A stretch of DNA of 64,000 nucleotides, from the NCBI GenBank assembly GCA_020381345.1, contig GCA_020381345.1_3636.1. One strand, given 5' to 3'. Below, piece by piece: positions 5,173-17,305 of the stretch. Each line of letters begins with the position of its first letter. Position 1 is the stretch's first letter. The translations under genes and the position numbers were made by a program. The notes beneath the pieces are model-generated. The model saw nothing but the letters and a program-made list of their open reading frames with translations. It was not told the origin of the DNA and made no database searches. Source of the DNA: a phage.

Positions 5173-5776
5173 TCTGTATTTCTCCTACCACAAACGGCCC
5201 CACCTGGCAAGTGGAATAATTGACTAGCCATCAATCCCACACACTGTACAAATATACATGTAAAATAGCTATTGCATAATCTTTCATTGTGTGGTAGCAG
5301 GGCCATTTTTACACGTTTTTCCTTCCAAAATTGCACGTAATGCAGCTATTGCACAAAATTTAACCTGATGCATATCTTCAGTGTCTTGTCAACAACTAAA
5401 AATCTTTATAAGTCATACACTTACACAACCACAAAAGCGTGTTCTACGTGAAAAATCGGGTATAACTATAGCCACTAAATTCCAGAATTCACGTAGCGTC
5501 ACCATTCTATAGTCTGCTAAGCATTTATTCCAACCATAGAATAACGGAATAGTCAATACCTGCATAAAATAATTATTCGTTTAAACTGCATAACATAAAT
5601 CAGCCAGGGTGTCAACATTTTTCGTAAACAGTCCGAAATTGTCACGGTAAGTTATCATAAACAGAGAAATCTTTAGTCGTCTAATGTTTACTGTACATTA
5701 CTATACTGACTGGAATCATTAGATGACTAAGAGAAAGATAAGAAACAATTAACAGTCTAATTATATTAACGATAAC

Positions 5777-6051
5777 AATAACAGCGGTTAAAGTCATGGC
5801 GCGACGGAGTCGCGACATAATAACACCGAGTAACCCTCACCCCCGTGAGCGTTGCGAATGTTATTATGCCATGACTAAATCATTTCAACACGTAACTATA
5901 GGCATAACAACATTCCCTCGGTGTTATTATGTCGCTAGTTATTATATAACTGTTAACAATAACGCCTCGGGAATAGTTCTGCCTGCACGATGTTTATAAC
6001 AGCAAGTTATGATCAACATTTCACAGATTATAATAACAGCGGTTAAAGTCA
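5777..6051. repeat. 20-bp direct repeat AATAACAGCGGTTAAAGTCA, two copies
   Basis: Identical 20-mers at 5777-5796 and 6032-6051. Confidence 0.7.
5812..5935. repeat. perfect 19-bp inverted repeat flanking an 86-bp loop
   Basis: GCGACATAATAACACCGAG (5812-5830) is the exact reverse complement of CTCGGTGTTATTATGTCGC (5917-5935). Confidence 0.7.
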
Positions 6052-6709
6052 GGCGTAGAAACAGTGGAAGTGTAAACAGTCAATCATGTAAATGATAAGT
6101 ATGTGAACAGTTATCCATGTAAACTATTAGACATGCAAACAATCAGGTGTGCAAAAGTGTCAAGGGTGTCACCAGTATGTCAGACAAGTTTTCCTCCTCT
6201 TTGTCAAGTGCTGCATGAAAAATTTACAAACTGGTATGGTAGCATTTTTGCGGCCCTGTTTACATTCAGTAATGTATGTATAATCCTTGTTGTGTGGGCG
6301 TTTAGACGTCTAGACGGTTGGAAGTCCACAGGTCAATATCTAATCTATCGGCTGCTAACTATATCCCACACAAATAGTAAGAAATATAATTGTTATGCGT
6401 GTAAACAGTAACTCATGTTATCAATCCCTGTATGGATCGCCAGTGGTGCGCATAATGGGTATTATGTTAAATTGCCAGTAATGATAACTATTCTCACAAT
6501 GATAGGTATTCTCATTCCCCCACACAAGATAGGTTGCAAATGTTGTGCCACTGTGTGAACGGCCTCACCTATTAATTTGCCTCACTGCCTCGATATTTGA
6601 GAATTATTATAAGAATGAGAAGTATTCCCATTTCGTCCGCCTGGCAGCACTCCTGTAGGTCAGGTCAAAATCGGGAGAGAACTGGACCTGTTCAGATATT
6701 TCTGGCTGG

Positions 6710-7894
6710 CTCTTCAGGTCTGTGTGGGAAAAGCCGACCCCTCCGGCGGCGGGGAGGTGGTCAATTAAAAAATTTACGGGGTATATGAAGCGCTCTTCAG
6801 GTAAGGCATGTATTATGGGATGAAACCCTCTTCAGGCAATGATATTTGTGGGTGTGATATTTGCTGGAAAGCCAGATATGACGGGACTCCCGGCGGGGCA
6901 GGGGTAGTACAGACAGGGAAAATATGGGGATGTAGTTGGGTGAATTGATCGGTCAGGTAGGGTATGGAATATGTTACAGGTATGTTAAATATGGAGGGTG
7001 AATATCTGTAGGATTTGTGTGTAAAATCAAAGACTTAAGTGGTGTTGTGGTATTTTCTATAAATAATTCAAGTTTAATAGGTAATATTTGTCCCTATCCA
7101 CTTTGTGTGGTAAACAAATTCAGATGAGATTGGTTTACAAGTGTATACATAATATACAAATTAAAGATACAAGAAACCCCCCTCCCCCTTCGGCTACCAT
7201 TCACCTTTTCCTCTGACTGGTACTTAAACACTTATTCAGACTCTTCAGGTTATCACCCATATATCATATGGCAGTGACTGGTGTCCTCCGGCCCCTCTTT
7301 CGTCACCCGTCCGCTTCGCCATGCTAATGCCATAGCCAAAGGTTCGGTTGTTCACCCTGTTCACTCAGGTGTATCTCCATACCCCTTCAAACCGAAGAGA
7401 ACAGAAAACCCGAATTACTCGGTAAAAGAAAAGAGAAGAACTTAATTTTATCAGGATAGGCAAGAATGTCAAGGCATGACTGCTCACTAAACAAGCAAAC
7501 AGTCATGTGTGGGAGGTAAGTGATTGTGGTTGTAGGAAATTTAGTTGAAAGATGTGTTATAGGTGCTTCCAGCACTTTAGCCGGGCAGCTAATTGTGTGT
7601 CAGTCCAGCGGTTCATCCTCTACTTCACTGAAATCAATGTTCATGGTCTCTTCCCAACCATCGATCTCAGCACAAGAGTGGAGTTCTTTAGGGTTTACTC
7701 CCAAAGCCTCAGCAACAGAGTCTATATTTAACACCTCTGGCAGGTATGATTCATCGAATTCAAGGTAAATCAGGCCACGAGTATTGTCAGCTCCACCAAA
7801 TAGTTCTATCTTCATGAAATCTCCTTCGGAAAATGAGTGTGAACAGGATTATACGTCCCAATGCGCAGGAATTATGCACGTTTGCCTCTTCAGG
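6710..7894 (+). repeat. five same-strand copies of CTCTTCAGG
   Basis: Exact 9-mer at 6710, 6793, 6828, 7241 and 7886; copies at 6710, 6828 and 7886 are followed by TGTGGG and the one at 6793 by TGGG; two are followed by CCGGCGG(C)GGG tracts. Confidence 0.6.
7600..7815 (-). CDS. hypothetical acidic protein (71 aa)
   Basis: ORF track; strongly acidic composition. Confidence 0.45.
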   Translation of the reverse strand: MKIELFGGADNTRGLIYLEFDESYLPEVLNIDSVAEALGVNPKELHSCAEIDGWEETMNIDFSEVEDEPLD

Positions 7895-7933: not shown

Positions 7934-8146
7934 TCATAGTCTACCACCCCTGAACTCTTCGTGCTCAGGCATAATAGAGAACCAGATATCTACGATGTCT
8001 TCCCACGTTAGGTCATTAGCCTCAGGATCTACCTGGAGCGAAGATGGAGAATCTTCAGAATCGAAGTTTTCCTCTTTCACTGGCTCAGCCAAGGGACATA
8101 TAGTCACTCCTTTTGATGTCTCTTCAGATGCATGTGTGTTGATCAT
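7934..8146 (-). CDS. hypothetical acidic protein (70 aa)
   Basis: C-terminal part of track ORF 7934..8347; ATG at 8144-8146 overlaps the upstream peptide stop as ATGA. Confidence 0.45.
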   Translation of the reverse strand: MINTHASEETSKGVTICPLAEPVKEENFDSEDSPSSLQVDPEANDLTWEDIVDIWFSIMPEHEEFRGGRL

Positions 8147-8244
8147 GTTCCACCCGTGAGTATTCCGGCAACAGCCGCTATGGACGTAATGATCATCAGG
8201 ATCACCACTAAAACTTCGGACAATGTTTTCATTGTGTATTCCAT
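8143..8244 (-). CDS. small hydrophobic peptide (33 aa), not in ORF track
   Basis: Hand-translated MEYTMKTLSEVLVVILMIITSIAAVAGILTGGT; RBS GGAG 4 nt upstream. Confidence 0.4.
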   Translation of the reverse strand: MEYTMKTLSEVLVVILMIITSIAAVAGILTGGT

Positions 8245-8506
8245 ATTCTCCAAATGATGTGTGGATATTATCACTGGAGCGGTAATGTGTCAACAGAAAC
8301 GCCGCGAGGGTTTGGTTAAAATCCGAGCGTATGGTGATTTGGGTCAAAACGGACGTGCGTTCTCGCTACGCTCGAAAGAGAGATTTGTTTGTAGGCCGTC
8401 CTTAAACGCTCTATAATGAGATTATCTGCCCAAGGTATGCAATCGTGCACCAGATAAAGAAAAGGACGCCACAGAGCGTCCTAGGTGTCTTAAATTTGAT
8501 ATTTTG

Positions 8507-8818
8507 CTATACCCACGAGGGCTTATCAAGATTGGAGTAGCTGAAAGGTGTCAAAAGGTGACTGTCAAAATCTCTCAAACTATCCAAATCTTTTTCCTCG
8601 TCCTGACACCATCTGTGCCTACATTTATTGTTGTAGTGCATGGAATGCATAGCGTTCTGCAACTTAACAGGTACAAGTGATTCAGGAGTAGATAGTATTG
8701 TAGGGTATGCCAGAACCACCTCAAACAGTGGAAACACATCGAAACTAAAGTCTACCTCTGCAGAGGTTGATGGCATATAGGAGTATTTAGCCGCCTTTGT
8801 AGACATAATCCACCTCAC
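8507..8818 (-). CDS. hypothetical protein (103 aa)
   Basis: ORF track. Confidence 0.5.
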   Translation of the reverse strand: MRWIMSTKAAKYSYMPSTSAEVDFSFDVFPLFEVVLAYPTILSTPESLVPVKLQNAMHSMHYNNKCRHRWCQDEEKDLDSLRDFDSHLLTPFSYSNLDKPSWV

Positions 8819-9141
8819 ACAGGTTTGATAATACCTTCACCTAATAACTCTTCATATCTAATCTTATCCGGATCCCACTCCTGGATAATTTCGAAGACAA
8901 TATCCAACCCAGGAATAATCACTTCTCCAGTGTCAAGTTTGGCAAGAACAAAACCAGAAGGCTGAATGGTTTCCCAGTTGCGACGATTGGAATAGAAGAC
9001 CTCGAAAATATCACCGACCTTGATCTGTTGATCAAGATGTTCAAGATTCTCTTTCATATAGACGCAGCGGATTTTTCGTGCAGGCCATAGACCACCTGCA
9101 TCACGTTCATTTAGCTCTTTCACAGTGATTGGCATTCTCAT
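8815..9141 (-). CDS. hypothetical protein (about 108 aa)
   Basis: Track ORF 8815..9192 would read through an intergenic hairpin; the internal ATG at 9141 has RBS AAGGA. Confidence 0.45.
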   Translation of the reverse strand: MRMPITVKELNERDAGGLWPARKIRCVYMKENLEHLDQQIKVGDIFEVFYSNRRNWETIQPSGFVLAKLDTGEVIIPGLDIVFEIIQEWDPDKIRYEELLGEGIIKPV

Positions 9142-9193
9142 AGCTGGTTCCTTTTGCAAATAGTGAAAGAGGGGCCGTAGCCCCTCTGCCATA

Positions 9194-9499
9194 TTATTCT
9201 ACAGAGCGTTTGAACAGAATGTCTGCCTCAGACATGTGCTCAACCTCTTCTTCAATCTTAGCGCGACGTTTTTCAGCTTCGTAGCGGATATCAAACTCTG
9301 TAGCCACCAAAGATTTGATGAATTTAGGAGAATACAGATGATCCTGCTTCTCAACAAGAATGATATCCTTGATGGCATCTTTCAAATCTTTAATCTGAAG
9401 CTGGAGTTCCACCAGTTCTTCAATTGTTTTGCGAAGGCGATCACGTTCTGCAGTGTCAGAAGGAAGAGAGGTGAACAGTTCAACTTTAGATTTAGCCAT
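9194..9499 (-). CDS. hypothetical coiled-coil protein (101 aa)
   Basis: ORF track; followed by hairpin GAGGGGCTACGGCCCCTC. Confidence 0.5.
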   Translation of the reverse strand: MAKSKVELFTSLPSDTAERDRLRKTIEELVELQLQIKDLKDAIKDIILVEKQDHLYSPKFIKSLVATEFDIRYEAEKRRAKIEEEVEHMSEADILFKRSVE

Positions 9500-9527
9500 A
9501 GTAAGAGTCTCCTTATGTTGTTTTAAA

Positions 9528-9779
9528 TTAACGTTCTACAAAAATACCGTTCAGTTCAATAACCAGGAATTTCTGGTCTTCACTATCGTCTCGTGCCAGC
9601 ACCTCACAGACGTATCGGTCATCCCCATCATCATCGCAGTCAAATACAAGACTGAGGACTTTATCATGATAAACCTTCGCCACTATCGCCTCGTAAGTAT
9701 TGCCGATTGTGAATCCAAGATAATCTCCAATGCATTTGACAACAACATGATCGCCAGCATTCAAGTCAATCTTCGTCAT
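9528..9779 (-). CDS. hypothetical protein (83 aa)
   Basis: Internal ATG at 9779 with RBS AAGGGG 8 nt upstream. Confidence 0.45.
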   Translation of the reverse strand: MTKIDLNAGDHVVVKCIGDYLGFTIGNTYEAIVAKVYHDKVLSLVFDCDDDGDDRYVCEVLARDDSEDQKFLVIELNGIFVER

Positions 9780-9934
9780 TACTGCGCCCCTTGGGTAATA
9801 ATACTGTATGTAAAACTTTAACCAGAGATGTGAATAACGCCCCAAAACACACCGATAGCGCTAAAACAGACAAGGCCATCATTAAAGCTTCAGTAAAATC
9901 AGTCACCCCTCACCTCTTGTTAGTCACTATACTG

Positions 9935-10198
9935 TCATTTATCCTTGCCGTCAAGAACTTTTTTAAATCTTTCAGGGATATCGCCTGTTCTTAGATAGCT
10001 CATGACCTCACAAGGTTCCCACTTAAATTTCTTACAAAGCAGGGCGGCTGAGATTGTTTCATTGCGAAAAGAAAGGATATTAATATCCCATTCTGAGAAC
10101 CCCAACTTCCGAAGGGTAGCTACAGAAATCCTCACCGCAACCCAGCAGCAAAAACATGCAACAAACGCCACTGCTATAACCCACATCAGGATGTTCAT
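9935..10198 (-). CDS. hypothetical membrane protein (87 aa)
   Basis: N-terminal hydrophobic helix MNILMWVIAVAFVACFCCWVAV. Confidence 0.5.
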   Translation of the reverse strand: MNILMWVIAVAFVACFCCWVAVRISVATLRKLGFSEWDINILSFRNETISAALLCKKFKWEPCEVMSYLRTGDIPERFKKVLDGKDK

Positions 10199-10207
10199 AC
10201 AAGCACC

Positions 10208-10291
10208 TCACTGAAATACAAGACACAGTGCTAAGGTTACAGACCAGCAAATAACTAACAGTGCCGTTGCAACCTTGGCAAGATTTATCAT
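10208..10291 (-). CDS. small hydrophobic peptide (27 aa), not in ORF track
   Basis: Hand-translated MINLAKVATALLVICWSVTLALCLVFQ; ATG overlaps upstream stop as ATGA; GAGG 7 nt upstream. Confidence 0.35.
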   Translation of the reverse strand: MINLAKVATALLVICWSVTLALCLVFQ

Positions 10292-10575
10292 AGTGCCTCT
10301 AAGATTTCATATCCTTCGGGTCGGAATACAAGCCACTCCGTGGCTCCGTTTGGTCGATACGCTTTATACAGAACAACCTGATCTCGGCACATGCACATAG
10401 CTACATAGTTTTCATCCACACCTGCAGCCTGCATTGCAGCTTCTTCTCCGGCAACTGCTTTGCTTACAACCTCCTTAGTAGGCAGGTGTGCGATCAGCTC
10501 GTCACCATCATTAATTCCAAAATGGCTGAGCTCCCCATTGGTATCTTTAATCTTAATTTTAACCAGATCTTTCAT
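10288..10575 (-). CDS. hypothetical protein (95 aa)
   Basis: ORF track; start adjoins upstream stop. Confidence 0.5.
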   Translation of the reverse strand: MKDLVKIKIKDTNGELSHFGINDGDELIAHLPTKEVVSKAVAGEEAAMQAAGVDENYVAMCMCRDQVVLYKAYRPNGATEWLVFRPEGYEILEAL

Positions 10576-10904
10576 TAGTCTTCCTCCAGGTTCAAAGGCC
10601 CTAAGATTTCATATGCCAGATTAGAAGTTACCAGAGGGTCTTCTGCATCTTTAGTATTATACCACCCGTGAATAACCAGAGTCCCACTCTGTTTCATATC
10701 CAACTGGAACTGTTCTGCAGTTTCCTCATCCATCTCTAAGATTTCCATAAGGTATTTGATGTTAGGAAGGTATGCAGCTGTTACAGTTCCCTCCACCAAA
10801 CCTTCGGGCCAACCTACATCTGGATGACAAGTAGGAACCAGGTTGGTCAGCTTAATGGTGTACGCTTTTTCTGCACGAGCCTTCAGTAACTGGTCAATCT
10901 TCAT
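10575..10904 (-). CDS. hypothetical acidic protein (109 aa)
   Basis: ORF track; member of tandem small-gene array. Confidence 0.5.
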   Translation of the reverse strand: MKIDQLLKARAEKAYTIKLTNLVPTCHPDVGWPEGLVEGTVTAAYLPNIKYLMEILEMDEETAEQFQLDMKQSGTLVIHGWYNTKDAEDPLVTSNLAYEILGPLNLEED

Positions 10905-11254
10905 TATTCGTCCTCCTCTTCGGTGCCTGCTTCCAGTAATAAGTTAAGAATATCTTCTGCACAAGGCTCATAGAACTCTTGGCCTTCATTATCGATGATT
11001 TTGTAGTCATCTCCGCGAATAATCAGAGGATCACTCTCAAAATTATCGAGACCTTTAACAACGACAACACGATCGATTGCCATCATTGTAAGAACTTTAT
11101 CGACATCTTCCTCTGCTACACCATACTGCAGCAGAATGTCTTTGGTAGGAGGAACAGCATCCACCACAACGCCGTTACCAAAACCTTCTGGAAGTTTAGC
11201 TAAAATATCTTCCGGAACCACATTCACATCAAAACCGGTAATTTCTACTTTCAT
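10904..11254 (-). CDS. hypothetical acidic protein (116 aa)
   Basis: ORF track; MKVEITG-type N-terminus shared with neighbours. Confidence 0.5.
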   Translation of the reverse strand: MKVEITGFDVNVVPEDILAKLPEGFGNGVVVDAVPPTKDILLQYGVAEEDVDKVLTMMAIDRVVVVKGLDNFESDPLIIRGDDYKIIDNEGQEFYEPCAEDILNLLLEAGTEEEDE

Positions 11255-11515
11255 TTACAGCACCTCTTCGTCAACTACTTCATAAAAATGGCCTGGGATT
11301 GCAATAGCGTTCTCACCTTCACCTACAAACACAGTTCCGTCAAGAATCAACATCATAAGAATGTCTGGAATATCCTCTTCCGGAACGTTGCCAAAACTTT
11401 TAATCAGTTTGTAGGTTGGAAGATTTACCTCTAAGATGTCACCATCTTTAGAACGGAAATCTACACCGTCCTGAATCTCTGCCGTTTCAAGGTTTTTCAA
11501 TTTAATCTTCATCAA
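11255..11515 (-). CDS. hypothetical protein (86 aa)
   Basis: ORF track; MMKIKL N-terminus. Confidence 0.5.
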   Translation of the reverse strand: MMKIKLKNLETAEIQDGVDFRSKDGDILEVNLPTYKLIKSFGNVPEEDIPDILMMLILDGTVFVGEGENAIAIPGHFYEVVDEEVL

Positions 11516-11591
11516 TCAGTCTCCTGTCTTGTTAAGATGAAGGTATTATTTCACACAGGGTTGGTGTTGTCAACACCTGTGTGCAAGAAAA

Positions 11592-11987
11592 TTACTGAAA
11601 CAGTGCGGATAAATTACCTTCTGGTGGGAACTTATCTGCCAAAAACGGTGTTAGCACAGTAGCCTTCTGAAGATCTGGGGTCCACTCGTTGTTCAGAACA
11701 TCCCAGTAGTACGCAATGTTACTGTGTGGGTGCCGCATTACGAACTTTTTCCCTTCGTAGTCATCTGAAACCTCTACAGAAGAAATAACAACAGAATCTT
11801 CAAGGGTTTCTTCATAGAAAGATCCGCCTTCAAATTTCCAACGAGATGCAAGAGCCCCTGCCTTGAACGCTGCAGATAACGGACTGTCGGCAAGAACATA
11901 CATTTCTTGCACTCTGTCGCTGCGATCCTTGCTTCTTACGTTGTACACAGTATCTGAGCTATACTCAACACGGTATAGGCTTACCAT
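11592..11987 (-). CDS. hypothetical protein (131 aa)
   Basis: Paralog of 13794..14192 (shared HP-S--YW---WTP block). Confidence 0.5.
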   Translation of the reverse strand: MVSLYRVEYSSDTVYNVRSKDRSDRVQEMYVLADSPLSAAFKAGALASRWKFEGGSFYEETLEDSVVISSVEVSDDYEGKKFVMRHPHSNIAYYWDVLNNEWTPDLQKATVLTPFLADKFPPEGNLSALFQ

Positions 11988-12346
11988 TACCGCACCTCCT
12001 CAATAACTTCCACATCTGAACCCACCACAAATGCAAAAGGACAGGTTTCATGAAAGACATCCGGATCGCCGCCAAGCTTGCTAACAATTTCTCCACCACT
12101 AATAAACACAAGCTCACCGATATTCATCAGATTGCTGAAATAGTATCCATAATGATTAAAGAATGCAGCAGGGTCAGGTAGACTAGTAGCCTCAAGTTCT
12201 ACATCGGTTGAGATTACTTTCTTATCATAACCTCTCGCCTTCTGAGATGCAAGATCTGCAGAATCTTCAGGCGACCGGAGATGCACAGGAATTGTTTCAC
12301 CAATAAAGCGTACTTTCATATTATCACCCAACAACCATAGCTTCAA
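11987..12346 (-). CDS. hypothetical protein (119 aa or shorter)
   Basis: ORF track; internal MKVRFIGE start possible. Confidence 0.45.
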   Translation of the reverse strand: MKLWLLGDNMKVRFIGETIPVHLRSPEDSADLASQKARGYDKKVISTDVELEATSLPDPAAFFNHYGYYFSNLMNIGELVFISGGEIVSKLGGDPDVFHETCPFAFVVGSDVEVIEEVR

Positions 12347-12587
12347 AAGGGGTCATGAACGAATAAACGGCATCATCATCTGCTTCAGGGAATGCTCCCA
12401 AAGACTTCATGTCTGAGCCTTTGACAAATACAAGGTTTTGATCAAAAGCTTCTTGGGGGTCAATCCGATACATATTTCGTAGAATATCACCTACCTCTTC
12501 ATCAAGAGGTGAGTATGCTGTGCACGTTTTTCCGATCAAGCTTTGAGAATCAGGGTATCCACCTGAAGTTTTAAAATAAACAATCAT
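12324..12587 (-). CDS. hypothetical protein (87 aa)
   Basis: Resembles the 14205/14449/18104 family (GYP and VxVKGxDxxSxGA motifs). Confidence 0.5.
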   Translation of the reverse strand: MIVYFKTSGGYPDSQSLIGKTCTAYSPLDEEVGDILRNMYRIDPQEAFDQNLVFVKGSDMKSLGAFPEADDDAVYSFMTPFEAMVVG

Positions 12588-12678
12588 ATAGTATCACCTC
12601 TGGTAAGAGATTGGGATTCCTTTCCCACAAATAATTACAAACCTTCCTTATAGAGGAAGCATGCTAATCCAAGCAGGA

Positions 12679-12948
12679 TTATTCCTCTACAATCTCATAC
12701 ACATCAGGAGTTACAATCAACTCTTCTCCGTTACCCGGTGCAACAAACACCACCATGCCTTCAGGTGTGTGCTTTTTAGCCATCTCGATAACATCTTCTC
12801 GCAGAGCTGGCTCCATCAGATCAAAACCTTCACCCAGGGCATCACGAACCACCTTCATATAGTCAACTGGTTGTGCTTCGACAATCATGCCTTCAACCAG
12901 TCCACAGTTTTTGTCTGCCAGCTCAGTTTTGAATAATTTAATTTTCAT
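12679..12948 (-). CDS. hypothetical acidic protein (89 aa)
   Basis: ORF track; MKIKLF N-terminus. Confidence 0.5.
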   Translation of the reverse strand: MKIKLFKTELADKNCGLVEGMIVEAQPVDYMKVVRDALGEGFDLMEPALREDVIEMAKKHTPEGMVVFVAPGNGEELIVTPDVYEIVEE

Positions 12949-13085
12949 TTAGAGGTCTCCTCAATTATTTGATATTAATAGCCGTAACCTAACACATTAA
13001 CTACAACTGCGATTGCAAACATAATTTCAAAGCATGCAATCTCTACATTTGGGACTAATTTCTTAATCATACCTATTGTAGCACC

Positions 13086-13403
13086 TCATTCTCCAAAGTC
13101 AATCTTTACTTTGCCTTTCCCCTTACCTTTCTTTCCACCGCATTTAGCCAGCTGACGTGCTGCAACATCTACCATACGGTCAGTTGCCTCGTAAGCATCA
13201 CTACCTTTAGCCTTGGCAATAACTTCTTTTCCAGAATTGTCAAAAATGAGCGCCATAACTTCCTGGTGATCATTTTCAACTTTTACACTTACACGTGCAT
13301 GATTTACAGAAGGATGTAGACGCTCCAGTTTTGACATTTTGTGGGAAATGAAAGACACCATACCTTCGGTGATTTCTACGTTGCCAGTGATCTCAATTTG
13401 CAT
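13086..13403 (-). CDS. ribosome hibernation promoting factor / RaiA-family homolog (105 aa)
   Basis: MQIEITGNVEITE N-terminus, VKVE block and ARQLAK C-terminal motif match the short HPF/YfiA family as recalled from E. coli; Lys/Gly-rich tail. Confidence 0.75.
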   Translation of the reverse strand: MQIEITGNVEITEGMVSFISHKMSKLERLHPSVNHARVSVKVENDHQEVMALIFDNSGKEVIAKAKGSDAYEATDRMVDVAARQLAKCGGKKGKGKGKVKIDFGE

Positions 13404-13485
13404 AACGTGTTCCTTTTAAAGAAGAGGGAATAACTCTCTCTTTGAAAACAATAATACTATAACTGAAGCGTTGTGTCAACAGTTT

Positions 13486-13776
13486 TTACAGCTTGTTGTC
13501 GATAGTTTTTAAAATATCCACAGCGAGATCTGCCATTTTTCGAACATACTCTGCAAACTCAACAGGATCCTTGATCAAAGAATTCACAGGGTCGTACCCT
13601 AGAGCGTTTAAAATGGCTGCAGCATCTACAACCTTCTCATCATTTGCGAAGATCTCTCCGTCAAACTTGTAGGTCCATTTTGAGTCAACCTTAGCAGAGC
13701 AGGGTTTGTCCATGCTTGTTACACCATCGTCTTTAAACTCTCCTGCGTTATCAATATTTAGAATTAAATCCATCAT
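13486..13776 (-). CDS. hypothetical protein (96 aa)
   Basis: ORF track. Confidence 0.5.
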   Translation of the reverse strand: MMDLILNIDNAGEFKDDGVTSMDKPCSAKVDSKWTYKFDGEIFANDEKVVDAAAILNALGYDPVNSLIKDPVEFAEYVRKMADLAVDILKTIDNKL

Positions 13777-13793
13777 GGTGACACCTCACTGTT

Positions 13794-14192
13794 TCAGTTT
13801 AGCTTTTCTTCAACAACCCCATAACTTGGGGCAGAGTCAAGAGCTTTCTGGTTTAAAAGTGGCGTAGCAGAATCTGCAAACGGTGTCCAAGTTTTTGTTC
13901 TGGCATTCCAGTAATGCTTAACTCTGGAATCTGGATGCACTATAACAAAAACTTTTTCACTTGTCAACACATTAATTTCTTCTACACCCTTGCTGATAAT
14001 TTCTCCGTCATAGCCCCCAGTCTGGTATCCTTCGTACCAGGTTCTTGCATAGGCATAGCCAGCCTGCCAGCATGCAGCCTCCTCCGAGGTGGAGACTACG
14101 TAGAAGTCTTTCTCAAATTCTGGAATACGCCCTTGCTTTACGCTCCAAGCCCCGCGAATTTTCATTGTAACTTTAAACAGTTTATTTTTCAC
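13794..14192 (-). CDS. hypothetical protein (132 aa)
   Basis: Paralog of 11592..11987. Confidence 0.5.
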   Translation of the reverse strand: MKNKLFKVTMKIRGAWSVKQGRIPEFEKDFYVVSTSEEAACWQAGYAYARTWYEGYQTGGYDGEIISKGVEEINVLTSEKVFVIVHPDSRVKHYWNARTKTWTPFADSATPLLNQKALDSAPSYGVVEEKLN

Positions 14193-14204
14193 AACGGTTA
14201 CCCA

Positions 14205-14459
14205 TCACAGCTCTACAATATCTGCATCTGACCCTACCCCAAAGGCATAGTAGGACTCTTCCCCGAAATAATATTCAGGTGCACCAGCGGTGATCAGGTC
14301 TGATCCTAAGATAAACACCACGTTGTGGCCTACATAACTGTGATGTTGCCGCACAGGATCATCCCACGGCAACCCTTCAAAGTATACCGCAGGGACGACC
14401 TTTCCTTTCAGGAAGGATTGCCCCAAGTAGACGTTAGAATCAAGAATTTTAACCTTCAT
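14205..14459 (-). CDS. hypothetical protein (84 aa), MKVK-LDS family
   Basis: Paralog of 14449..14676 and 18104..18337 (MKVKxLD, YxGQ, GxDLIxAGA). Confidence 0.5.
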   Translation of the reverse strand: MKVKILDSNVYLGQSFLKGKVVPAVYFEGLPWDDPVRQHHSYVGHNVVFILGSDLITAGAPEYYFGEESYYAFGVGSDADIVEL

Positions 14460-14676
14460 GATCGTCCTCCACTATCTCTACATCCTCACCTAGGGCAAAG
14501 TTGTAGGTCCACTGACTGTCAAAGCATTCCTGAGATGCACCAGCGGCAATAAGATCTGCCCCTTTTATTTTTAAAAGGTCAGGGTAATCTTCGTTAGGGA
14601 CAGCAGTAAACACTTTCCCCACTAAAGGCTCCTGACCAATATAGAAGCTTGAATCTAAAACTTTAACTTTCATCAA
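14449..14676 (-). CDS. hypothetical protein (75 aa), MKVK-LDS family
   Basis: Paralog of 14205..14459. Confidence 0.5.
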   Translation of the reverse strand: MMKVKVLDSSFYIGQEPLVGKVFTAVPNEDYPDLLKIKGADLIAAGASQECFDSQWTYNFALGEDVEIVEDDHEG

Positions 14677-14960
14677 CGGTCTCCATCAGGTGGTTGTGGG
14701 ACGTAAACACTGTTACGAATATCGTCCGCAGTATAGTAATAAGTGTCTCCAACCCTATCTCTGGCTGCAATGTACTCTGCTATACCAATAAGTGCCATTG
14801 ATTTGGTGGCGTATCTTCCCCACTCGTTAGCTCCCCAGTAGAATTTAGACCAATAGGGAATAAGACCGAACAAATATACCTTTTGACGAACTTCCCAGTA
14901 AGTGCCTTTCCCGACAAGTTTAAACTCAACTTCACCACTGTTAATCTTTTTCATTATCAA
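14673..14960 (-). CDS. hypothetical protein (95 aa)
   Basis: ORF track; 4-nt overlaps with neighbours. Confidence 0.5.
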   Translation of the reverse strand: MIMKKINSGEVEFKLVGKGTYWEVRQKVYLFGLIPYWSKFYWGANEWGRYATKSMALIGIAEYIAARDRVGDTYYYTADDIRNSVYVPQPPDGDR

Positions 14961-15253
14961 TCTCCCTCTACCGTGGTCGGATTGTCAGTAAGAAATTGAG
15001 CATTAGCTGGAGGCACACCTGACATTTTCCACACGACCATAAGTTTGTAACCAGGCACTCTATTAAGCGCAGATCGAGTAGAGTTTGTGCACGTATACTT
15101 TCGCTTTCCAAACCCGTTCTCCATCATAATCCAGTACCCAGTATCTTTGTCACCAGGTATTGGTAGACCACCTTCATCAACCCACTGAATGGACCACGGC
15201 ACGATGGCTACAGCTTTATATTTAAACTTTTTAAACCACTCAAAAAGTTTCAT
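14957..15253 (-). CDS. hypothetical protein (98 aa)
   Basis: ORF track. Confidence 0.5.
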   Translation of the reverse strand: MKLFEWFKKFKYKAVAIVPWSIQWVDEGGLPIPGDKDTGYWIMMENGFGKRKYTCTNSTRSALNRVPGYKLMVVWKMSGVPPANAQFLTDNPTTVEGD

Positions 15254-15256
15254 AAT

Positions 15257-15346
15257 TCAGCCTCGCATAGACATAATCACTATAAACAGGCAAACAATGA
15301 ATCCGAATGCCACGCCACCCATAAACGTTAATATTGATGCAATCAT
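15257..15346 (-). CDS. small hydrophobic peptide (29 aa), not in ORF track
   Basis: Hand-translated MIASILTFMGGVAFGFIVCLFIVIMSMRG; lies between two tightly spaced genes. Confidence 0.35.
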   Translation of the reverse strand: MIASILTFMGGVAFGFIVCLFIVIMSMRG

Positions 15347-15348
15347 AG

Positions 15349-15534
15349 TCAATCAGCCTCGCTTGGCAACTCTTCCACCTTAACATGCCGAAAAGTGTTA
15401 CCGTAATGGTTGATCCATGACATCAGCTCACTTTCTTGCTCTTCCTCTGGGATGAACTCTCGAATACTGACAAGTTTTAAGAAAACCCAATCACAATCTG
15501 CACCCATTCTACCAGACAGACAATAGTGCTTCAT
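15349..15534 (-). CDS. hypothetical protein (61 aa)
   Basis: ORF track. Confidence 0.45.
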   Translation of the reverse strand: MKHYCLSGRMGADCDWVFLKLVSIREFIPEEEQESELMSWINHYGNTFRHVKVEELPSEAD

Positions 15535-15553
15535 AAAAACCCTCCATCCTGGT

Positions 15554-15754
15554 TTAGAATACTGCCTCTTTTAATGATCCAAGGAGCAGCAGGTGTGAAA
15601 TCTGATCCACATCCATGGTAGATTCAATCTCCTCTTTTTTGAAAGGTTCTCGGCAAAACAGTACTACATTTGGGTTTTCGCTACGCACTATATAATACAG
15701 ATCGTTCAAATCATTCTCATAGTAGGTATTAAATTTAAGAATTTTGTCACTCAT
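15554..15754 (-). CDS. hypothetical protein (66 aa)
   Basis: ORF track. Confidence 0.45.
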   Translation of the reverse strand: MSDKILKFNTYYENDLNDLYYIVRSENPNVVLFCREPFKKEEIESTMDVDQISHLLLLGSLKEAVF

Positions 15755-16904: not shown

Positions 16905-17104
16905 CCCTCATCGCACGTCTGATATAACCACTCTATAAAATCTTGATACCATTCGCCCTCTGAGCGCTCCGTAGGCCAATAATCTTCACCCTCTCGTGCA
17001 TTAAAATCTGAGTATTCAACTTTCCACTCCTTTACCAGCTCGTGGAGAAGGTTTTCAGCCTGCTCTAAAGATTTATTTTTTGCCATTGCTGTCTCCTTTT
17101 TCAA
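16901..17104 (-). CDS. hypothetical acidic protein (67 aa)
   Basis: ORF track. Confidence 0.45.
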   Translation of the reverse strand: MKKETAMAKNKSLEQAENLLHELVKEWKVEYSDFNAREGEDYWPTERSEGEWYQDFIEWLYQTCDEG

Positions 17105-17305
17105 GATAGTTATACATCAGAACTGCACCACCTAAGATGGCTACCAGTAACAATACCCCAGATAGCATCTCAATAAACATGGCTTGAAACACTGGAAGGT
17201 CTCCCTAAATTAACGCACCATTTTAAATACATGCTCTTTTCCCATAAAGGTGCCTGGCTAAGATCTGCGTAGAACGCAATCTCTTTAAGAACAGTATAAA
17301 CAGTT

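Follow-up and report, generated by a model that had tools for sequence, protein, structure and literature searches.

Very short hydrophobic open reading frames in the small-gene arrays of an rV5-like phage: probable genes for single-pass membrane microproteins

Are very short hydrophobic open reading frames (ORFs), lying in the gaps between the recognised genes of a large phage, genes in their own right? The question is raised by a 64,000-nucleotide (nt) stretch of phage DNA (contig GCA_020381345.1_3636.1 of GenBank assembly GCA_020381345.1; hereafter the window), for which an initial annotation reported five such ORFs below the length cut-off of its gene track. They are labelled here A (8143-8244), B (10208-10291), C (12975-13070) and D (15257-15346), all on the minus strand, and E (2517-2621) on the plus strand. 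All five were found at these positions, encoding 33, 27, 31, 29 and 34 amino acids (aa), respectively. The conservation, composition and surroundings of these sequences suggest that A, B, D and E, together with two further ORFs of the same kind (F and G), are probably genuine genes for single-pass inner-membrane microproteins of 27-46 residues, and that C is possibly another.

The description of the products as tiny single-helix peptides encoded on the coding strand was borne out, each of A-E containing one strongly hydrophobic 19-residue window. The best 19-residue Kyte-Doolittle hydropathy ranged from 2.27 to 2.95, and charges were confined to the peptide ends, except for glutamates E10 and E15 in C. 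All five thus have the size and hydrophobicity of single-pass membrane microproteins (no more than 50 aa and a single hydrophobic stretch of 19 residues or longer). Among the ORFs of 25-45 aa in all six frames, 9 of 416 were similarly transmembrane (TM)-like, and their distribution was uneven. Coding-strand gaps held 4 (of the 34 ORFs there) and long genes 2 (of 291), and the 37 ORFs in opposite-strand gaps included none. The clustering of TM-like ORFs in coding-strand gaps exceeds chance. All seven coding-strand TM-like ORFs of 22-60 aa fall within 2.5-17.2 kb of the window, comprising A-E and two small single-TM genes absent from the initial list, namely F (17073-17192, minus strand, 39 aa) and G (9766-9906, minus strand, 46 aa). 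The start codon of F is GTG in the window and ATG in the FV3 clade.

An alternative account is that the U-rich spacers contain functionless frames that are open by chance. In its favour, 285 ORFs of 20 aa or more occur in 18 kb, and T-rich sequence easily yields hydrophobic peptides. In addition to the gap enrichment, the pattern of substitution among related phages bears on this account. Over 8000-15600 the window is 89-98% identical to 122 phage records, every one of which belongs to Vequintavirus (rV5-like Escherichia coli myophages). For a codon test, 25 related phage loci were assembled and distinct substitutions were tallied per codon position; a search of IMG/VR yielded only three related loci, including the divergent relative L014.

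Conservation of the reading frames in relatives, on which the initial annotation had staked its proposal, was confirmed for A, B, D and E, which show an in-frame excess of synonymous changes, and not for C. When read from its second ATG (8232), A was intact in 22 of 22 alignable loci, with 13 synonymous and 7 non-synonymous changes (S13:N7) distributed as [3,3,14] over the three codon positions (p=4.6e-4 in frame). B was intact in 25/25 (S13:N12; positions [7,6,12]; p=0.003), and D in all 15 of the loci that carry it (S8:N6; [6,0,8]; p=0.0067). Likewise, F was intact in 14/14 (S22:N6; [4,2,22]; p=4e-10) and G in 26/26 (S18:N17; [12,7,16]; p=2e-4). For A, B, D, F and G the remaining two frames were not significant, and accepted neighbouring genes gave p-values from 4e-4 to 8e-28 in the same test. 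For E, the ratio of non-synonymous to synonymous differences (pN/pS) was 0.43 (p=0.0035, in frame only). A, B, D, E, F and G thus show purifying selection in the proposed frame, and C does not.

The arrangement of the junctions is equally regular. The ATGA overlaps noted initially were found both at the stop of A, which overlaps the ATG of the downstream 70-aa gene (8143-8146), and at the ATG of B, which overlaps the stop of the upstream 95-aa gene (10288-10291). D is placed 2 nt past the upstream stop and 3 nt ahead of the next ATG. The stop of B lies within the Shine-Dalgarno sequence (GAGGTG) of the gene for an 87-aa membrane-anchored protein (9935-10198), and that of E within the GAGG Shine-Dalgarno sequence that precedes the ATG (2631) of the following gene. 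The proposed coupling to neighbours is thus compatible with the junction architecture, since the ORFs abut or overlap adjacent genes with the stop/start proximity of coupled cistrons, and these overlaps are kept across relatives. The same architecture could mean that translation itself matters and not the peptides, the ORFs serving as spacer or leader cistrons which deliver ribosomes or open the downstream Shine-Dalgarno sequence; the stops of B, D and E in or beside the next Shine-Dalgarno sequence, and the ATGA overlaps shared by A and B, speak for it. The pN/pS values of 0.25-0.56 obtained for these ORFs are unexpected for a pure spacer. The hydrophobic helix, the lysine K6 of B, the GGxxxG motif of D and the C-terminal tail of E are, moreover, kept across 50-78% nucleotide identity, and D is kept in prophages beside different neighbours, as described below.

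Comparisons between divergent sequences carry the most weight. In B, a peptide has been retained while its sequence changed. This 84-nt ORF of 27 aa, with one TM helix and K6, was full-length by tblastn in all 118 records giving a match. Compared with L014, 41 of its 84 nt differ (51% identity), and the 27 codons, K6, the hydrophobic core and the stop position are all kept. The surrounding sequence of L014 is about 82% identical over a 6-kb alignment block and 69% identical over a 300-nt segment. The pN/pS of B against L014 was 0.56 (p=0.011, in frame only). Its junction in L014 reads GTGA/TGATG, and its stop codon alternates between TGA and TAA among relatives. B, the 87-aa protein with its N-terminal TM helix, and G form a run of three membrane proteins, which might work together.

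E offers a second case of turnover. The 34-aa peptide has an N-terminal KQK, one TM helix and a conserved C-terminal tail (ATMxNMILSSxGIG), and its gene exists as two alleles, both of 34 codons and preceded by separate Shine-Dalgarno sequences. Between the alleles, nucleotide identity is about 49% in codons 1-20 (essentially unrelated) and 81-86% in codons 21-34. The first allele gave full-length tblastn matches in 72 records, and E covers positions 1-34 of the 34 in PHROG 14631 (E=8.1e-23). The retention of length through near-complete sequence turnover in B and E, added to the coding-strand gap enrichment, the in-frame selection signatures and the horizontal spread of D, leaves functionless chance frames as a very improbable account, already disfavoured for A, B, D and E.

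The start of A needs revision. The initial coordinates imply 33 aa from an ATG at 8244; the most likely start is the second ATG at 8232, giving 29 aa (8143-8232) with one TM helix and an AxxxG motif. This choice is indicated by the 29-residue PHROG profile, by the absence of the first ATG in L014, which has AGAGGAG before the second, and by the lack of conservation of the GGAG preceding the first ATG. In the match to PHROG 34195 (E=4.6e-21), residues 5-33 of the 33-aa form cover positions 1-29 of 29, i.e. the full profile. A sigma-70-like promoter (8265-8293, minus strand; TTGACA-17-TAATAT, with TG) stands upstream of A and is itself preceded by a terminator-like hairpin (8463-8482, minus strand). 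A is replaced in the relatives B9-1 and S127 BCL3. Some relatives, e.g. JEP1, carry at this place a long annotated coding sequence (CDS), a 137-aa ORF (7934-8347), which was judged spurious upstream of 8146 because no frame shows a coding signature over 8245-8347.

D differs from the others in that it comes and goes as a unit. It encodes 29 aa with one TM helix, the conserved GGxxxG and a C-terminal arginine (R28), and was full-length in 91 phage records. A second open frame over D was rejected, as the substitutions fall on its codon positions 1 and 2. A 10-nt direct repeat, GCGAGGCTGA, flanks a 96-nt D cassette on the minus strand, with the upstream copy at 15353-15362 and the downstream copy at 15257-15266, the latter taking in both the end of D (its last codons and stop) and the Shine-Dalgarno sequence that serves the following gene. 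The repeat occurs nowhere else in the window, its two copies comparing with an expectation of 0.06. Exactly these 96 nt are absent from JEP1 and L014; relatives without D keep a single copy of GCGAGGCTGA, most clearly JEP1, like an empty site, and the neighbours of D are then joined directly by an ATGA overlap. D is also absent from S127 BCL3 and YP-6, according to tblastn and annotation. The pattern fits gain or loss of D by recombination at the short junction repeat and provides a concrete case of micro-gene insertion or loss at a gene junction with its neighbours undisturbed.

Homologues of D were also found in 10 of 5,426 complete E. coli genomes, within prophages unrelated to rV5; the other six ORFs, pooled in a nucleotide search of the same 5,426 genomes, gave no match. 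The prophage homologues keep the 29 codons and GGxxxG at 78% nucleotide identity (pN/pS 0.25-0.26, p=6e-4) and are flanked likewise, by CGAGGCTGATTATG. The direct ATGA junction in phages without D speaks for the spacer-cistron alternative; with D retained beside different neighbours in prophages, and with the selection on residues noted above, that alternative as a whole appears quite unlikely. It is also conceivable that D is a self-contained 96-nt micro-gene cassette, mobile between temperate E. coli prophages and virulent rV5-like phages, and that together with B, E and the prophage arrays it belongs to an exchangeable toolkit of TM microproteins. Such a cassette would comprise a 29-codon TM ORF with its Shine-Dalgarno sequence and a stop that also serves as the next Shine-Dalgarno sequence, and would move by recombination at a 10-14-nt junction repeat carried at both ends. 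We regard this broader proposal as speculative and on balance unlikely; if true, the toolkit could serve, for example, the exclusion of competing phages or counter-defence.

The prophage setting itself showed a further array. In the prophages of strains PAR (L015, 6015-6886) and M1/5 (L016, 6015-6660), 8-10 packed tiny single-TM ORFs of 20-47 aa directly follow the D-like ORF, conserved in both order and sequence from one prophage to the other. The array is positioned between a holin-lysozyme-Rz cassette plus a 180-aa gene on one side and the terminase genes on the other. RefSeq annotates one overlapping 64-aa CDS in it in PAR, and none in M1/5.

This location raises the possibility that the peptides perturb the membrane directly, as depolarisers resembling type I toxins or as lysis-timing factors (holin or antiholin accessories). 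TisB (29 aa), ShoB and Fst are toxin peptides of like size and composition. In the prophages, the homologue of D is found some 0.9 kb downstream of the holin-lysozyme-Rz cassette, at the head of the array of tiny TM ORFs, and gene 129 of rV5, near F, is called a putative holin (Table S3 of Kropinski et al., 2013). On the other side, Pfam and NCBIfam gave no toxin or holin family match, and no antisense RNA family was found, Rfam at E<=1 returning only a spurious small nucleolar RNA match; the ORFs therefore lack, in these three databases, the toxin family match and antisense RNA that together mark type I toxins. The peptides are shorter than typical holins and have no charged C-terminus (0-1 C-terminal charges), and the rV5 lysin (gene 89) sits at 71.6 kb, more than 20 kb from the equivalents of these ORFs. 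The holin/antiholin hallmarks of a charged C-terminus and a place beside the endolysin were thus not seen, only the prophage homologue of D being near a lysis cassette. Direct membrane perturbation is, in our estimation, an unlikely explanation.

C requires separate treatment. In the window it encodes 31 aa, and in most relatives 33 aa from 13076, with KK at the N-terminus, E15 inside the TM helix and GYGY at the end. The initial annotation ranked this ORF as the weakest, a judgement that the comparison upheld. Its substitutions (S6:N14; positions [8,6,6]; p=0.26) show no codon bias, and it is disrupted in 2 of 25 loci, by an in-frame TAG in Mangalyan and by the lack of a start codon in S127 BCL3. 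The first nine codons are hypervariable, the start codon included. Codon 1 is ATG in most relatives, ATA in the window and S127 BCL3, and ACG in rV5_ev158; codon 3 is GTG, ATG, ACG and others among relatives. In favour of a peptide, the 33-aa form, TM-like, is identical in 83 of 118 records, and C matches PHROG 15151 (E=2.9e-24) at full length, over profile positions 3-33 of 33. The change from ATG to ATA at codon 1 of the window, paired with GTG to ATG at codon 3, looks like compensation that would keep a start codon.

The remainder of C is conserved in an unusual way. The core (12975-13049) accumulated only 8 distinct changes in 75 nt (S1:N6), against a median of 25 across the 25 genomes, and is the second most conserved window in 10 kb; several other top windows coincide with strong promoter-like sites. 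A sigma-70-like promoter (13075-13102, minus strand; TTGACT-16-TACAAT, with TG) ends 4 nt before the start of C in the window and overlaps the start codon used in relatives; the Gotham record also annotates a predicted promoter there. Transcription from this site would begin at about the start codon of C. The core also holds a 7-bp inverted repeat (GATTGCA-N17-TGCAATC).

These features suggest a competing account for C only, in which the block 12975-13049 is mainly a nucleotide-level element and the ORF is incidental or secondary; the block could belong to the regulatory or 5' untranslated leader sequence of the 89-aa gene that follows, or be a DNA site bound by a protein. Its attractions are synonymous sites as conserved as the rest of the core, the coincidence of several other top-conserved windows with strong promoter-like sites, the placement of the putative transcription start, the inverted repeat, and the unstable start codon with the nonsense codon of Mangalyan and the missing start of S127 BCL3. 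Less favourable to it are the absence of an Rfam match and a predicted fold not more stable than shuffled sequences (z=-0.28), the single occurrence of the palindrome in a copy search of the window, and the absence of a sigma-70-like promoter within the core on the coding strand. The apparent compensation of the lost ATG by a new one two codons on, and the identical TM-like peptide in 83 of 118 genomes, also count against it. A mainly nucleotide-level element is a substantial minority prospect. Between a constrained peptide and a nucleotide-level element the balance for C is roughly even, and it may be both; C is accordingly retained as a possible microprotein gene. Directly upstream of C lies the gene of a ribosome hibernation factor (13086-13403; HPF/RaiA-like), the 3' end of which varies in length in relatives (312 or 318 nt).

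Reading all the ORFs but C as microprotein genes leads to a proposed mechanism. The genes would be co-transcribed with their neighbours from sigma-70-type promoters. Stop-start signals that overlap or abut, and Shine-Dalgarno sequences lying within the preceding stop, would couple their translation to that of adjacent genes. The helix would insert in the host inner membrane and act through helix-helix contact with a partner, which could be a membrane protein of the host or one encoded by a neighbouring phage gene (e.g. the 87-aa anchored protein that follows B). Host takeover or the exclusion of competing phages would be the likely purpose. Helix-helix or tail-mediated interaction is favoured over bulk membrane damage by the GGxxxG of D, the AxxxG of A, the tail of E behind a replaceable anchor, and the placement of B before the 87-aa protein and then G. 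The genes are accessory, being gained, lost, replaced or fast-diverging beside conserved neighbours, and engagement with variable host or competitor targets would fit the turnover of B and E, the replacement of A in B9-1 and S127 BCL3 and the presence or absence of D. Any such specific biological role is advanced tentatively, as somewhat more likely to be wrong than right in its particulars.

Several points weigh against the interpretation as microprotein genes, besides the absent codon bias and the two disruptions of C. Substitution counts in the small ORFs are low, with 14-25 distinct changes each, and the pN/pS of B is only moderately below 1 (0.56 against L014, 0.7-0.8 against WM and YP-6). 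A second open frame on the same strand runs over B and D, though its substitution pattern is anti-coding. No family of known function in PHROG, Pfam or NCBIfam matches any of these ORFs. Synteny was not found outside the genus, Proteus phage Mydo sharing one gene at the nucleotide level in a different neighbourhood, so that conservation is testable within Vequintavirus only and is genus-deep (other Vequintavirinae genera not being syntenic). Finally, the sequences themselves show hydrophobicity, selection in frame, conserved ORFs, the layout of the junctions and polymorphism in presence or absence, from which any translation or insertion in the membrane is deduced, as are early timing, partners and role.

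The genomic setting agrees with that of rV5. The five ORFs A-E sit within two small-gene arrays converging on a 2.4-kb ORF-free stretch, and sigma-70-like promoters, including the one just upstream of A, are scattered through the small-gene array. The rV5 study described "88 mainly small ORFs" in the corresponding region, 33 consensus-like sigma-70 promoters across the genome, 15 proteins with transmembrane domains, and "no observable ORFs from 104013-106618" (Kropinski et al., 2013, Virol J 10:76). The ORF-free stretch of the window (about 5300-7600), which has no transfer RNA genes and lies between the two converging arrays, is equivalent to this "non-coding" region of rV5. In window numbering, the Gotham record places a 459-bp terminal repeat and its genome end at about 6150-6610. 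As to the matching records themselves, 18 of the 122 are labelled "Campylobacter phage" (GenBank MG0656xx, with C. jejuni as host) and are 95-98% identical to rV5-like coliphages; all 9 examined among these 18 carry the UNVERIFIED flag.

How much of this was already recorded? The description of the ORFs as unannotated holds for the gene track used initially and fails as a general claim, as four of the five are annotated in related phages. Table S3 of the rV5 study lists gene 145 (33 aa), corresponding to C, gene 173, corresponding to E with a longer N-terminus, gene 131 (F) and gene 156 (G) as "membrane protein, 1 TMD" (transmembrane domain) (Kropinski et al., 2013). A is annotated in JES2013 (gp152) and in BASEL phages. 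D has entries in BASEL phages and in E. coli records; most records, that of rV5 included, leave it without annotation. An exact-sequence look-up found A, the 33-aa C, D, E and F in public collections as hypothetical proteins, the match for C being to the form of most relatives and not to the 31-aa form of the window. A, C, E, F and G belong to PHROG families of unknown function, F and G matching PHROG 15251 and 16755, respectively. D had no significant family match, only weak ones (phrog_6302, E=0.0038; Pfam, E>0.04). B was absent from every annotation record examined and from a collection of 15 billion proteins, with no match in PHROG, Pfam or NCBIfam. The minimum gene length of the gene caller Prodigal is 90 nt, and the position of B (84 nt) below this floor would explain why it was missed everywhere. 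No detection of these peptides was found in a search of the rV5 paper and its supplements, "MS evidence" (mass spectrometry) in Table S3 being given only for larger structural proteins.

The phenomenon is therefore ordinary for large virulent phages and mostly annotated already in relatives. The additions are only three: a conserved gene, B, that had escaped annotation; the D cassette between its repeats, with homologues in prophages; and the unusual nucleotide conservation of C. The main value lies in annotation, B being conserved in about 118 genomes and yet missed. As tiny TM peptides are plausible modulators of host membrane proteins, functional screens of these ORFs would also be reasonable, the genus being one employed in O157 biocontrol and in therapy.

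Comparison with known systems begins within the genus, where rV5 genes 145, 173, 131 and 156 are the same genes as C, E, F and G, near-identical in sequence and at the same positions. The corresponding families PHROG 15151, 14631, 15251 and 16755, as well as 34195 for A, have no function assigned, and B and D fall outside the PHROGs. Peptides of similar size include the type I toxins TisB, ShoB, Ibs, Ldr and Fst, which form a hydrophobic single helix of 19-35 aa; unlike them, the present ORFs have no hidden Markov model match or detected antisense RNA and lie in polycistronic arrays, not at standalone loci. Among phage proteins, T4 Imm and Sp are accessory superinfection-exclusion membrane proteins of 83-97 aa, and LysM (37 aa), a single-gene lysis protein of leviviruses, shows that a peptide of less than 40 aa can inhibit a host membrane enzyme. 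The present products would resemble these in being phage-encoded, non-structural and, as predicted here, membrane-inserted, with no homology to them.

AcrZ, KdpF, CydX, MgrB and MgtS are bacterial small inner-membrane proteins that bind larger membrane proteins. They share with the ORFs described here a length of 30-50 aa, a single helix, small-xxx-small or GxxxG motifs and, often, a translationally linked partner gene; B directly precedes the gene of the 87-aa membrane-anchored protein. The likeness is one of functional analogy only, as the phage ORFs differ in lacking sequence similarity, in their phage origin and in their fast evolution. At the level of class, lastly, the ORFs resemble the small-gene families predicted across phage genomes (Fremin et al., 2022, Cell Rep 39:110984, as cited in PMC11188072) and the hydrophobic intergenic microproteins of Enterobacteriaceae (PMC11188072). 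These sets are catalogues of short ORFs, for the most part hydrophobic or TM, which evolve under purifying selection and are overlooked by standard annotation.

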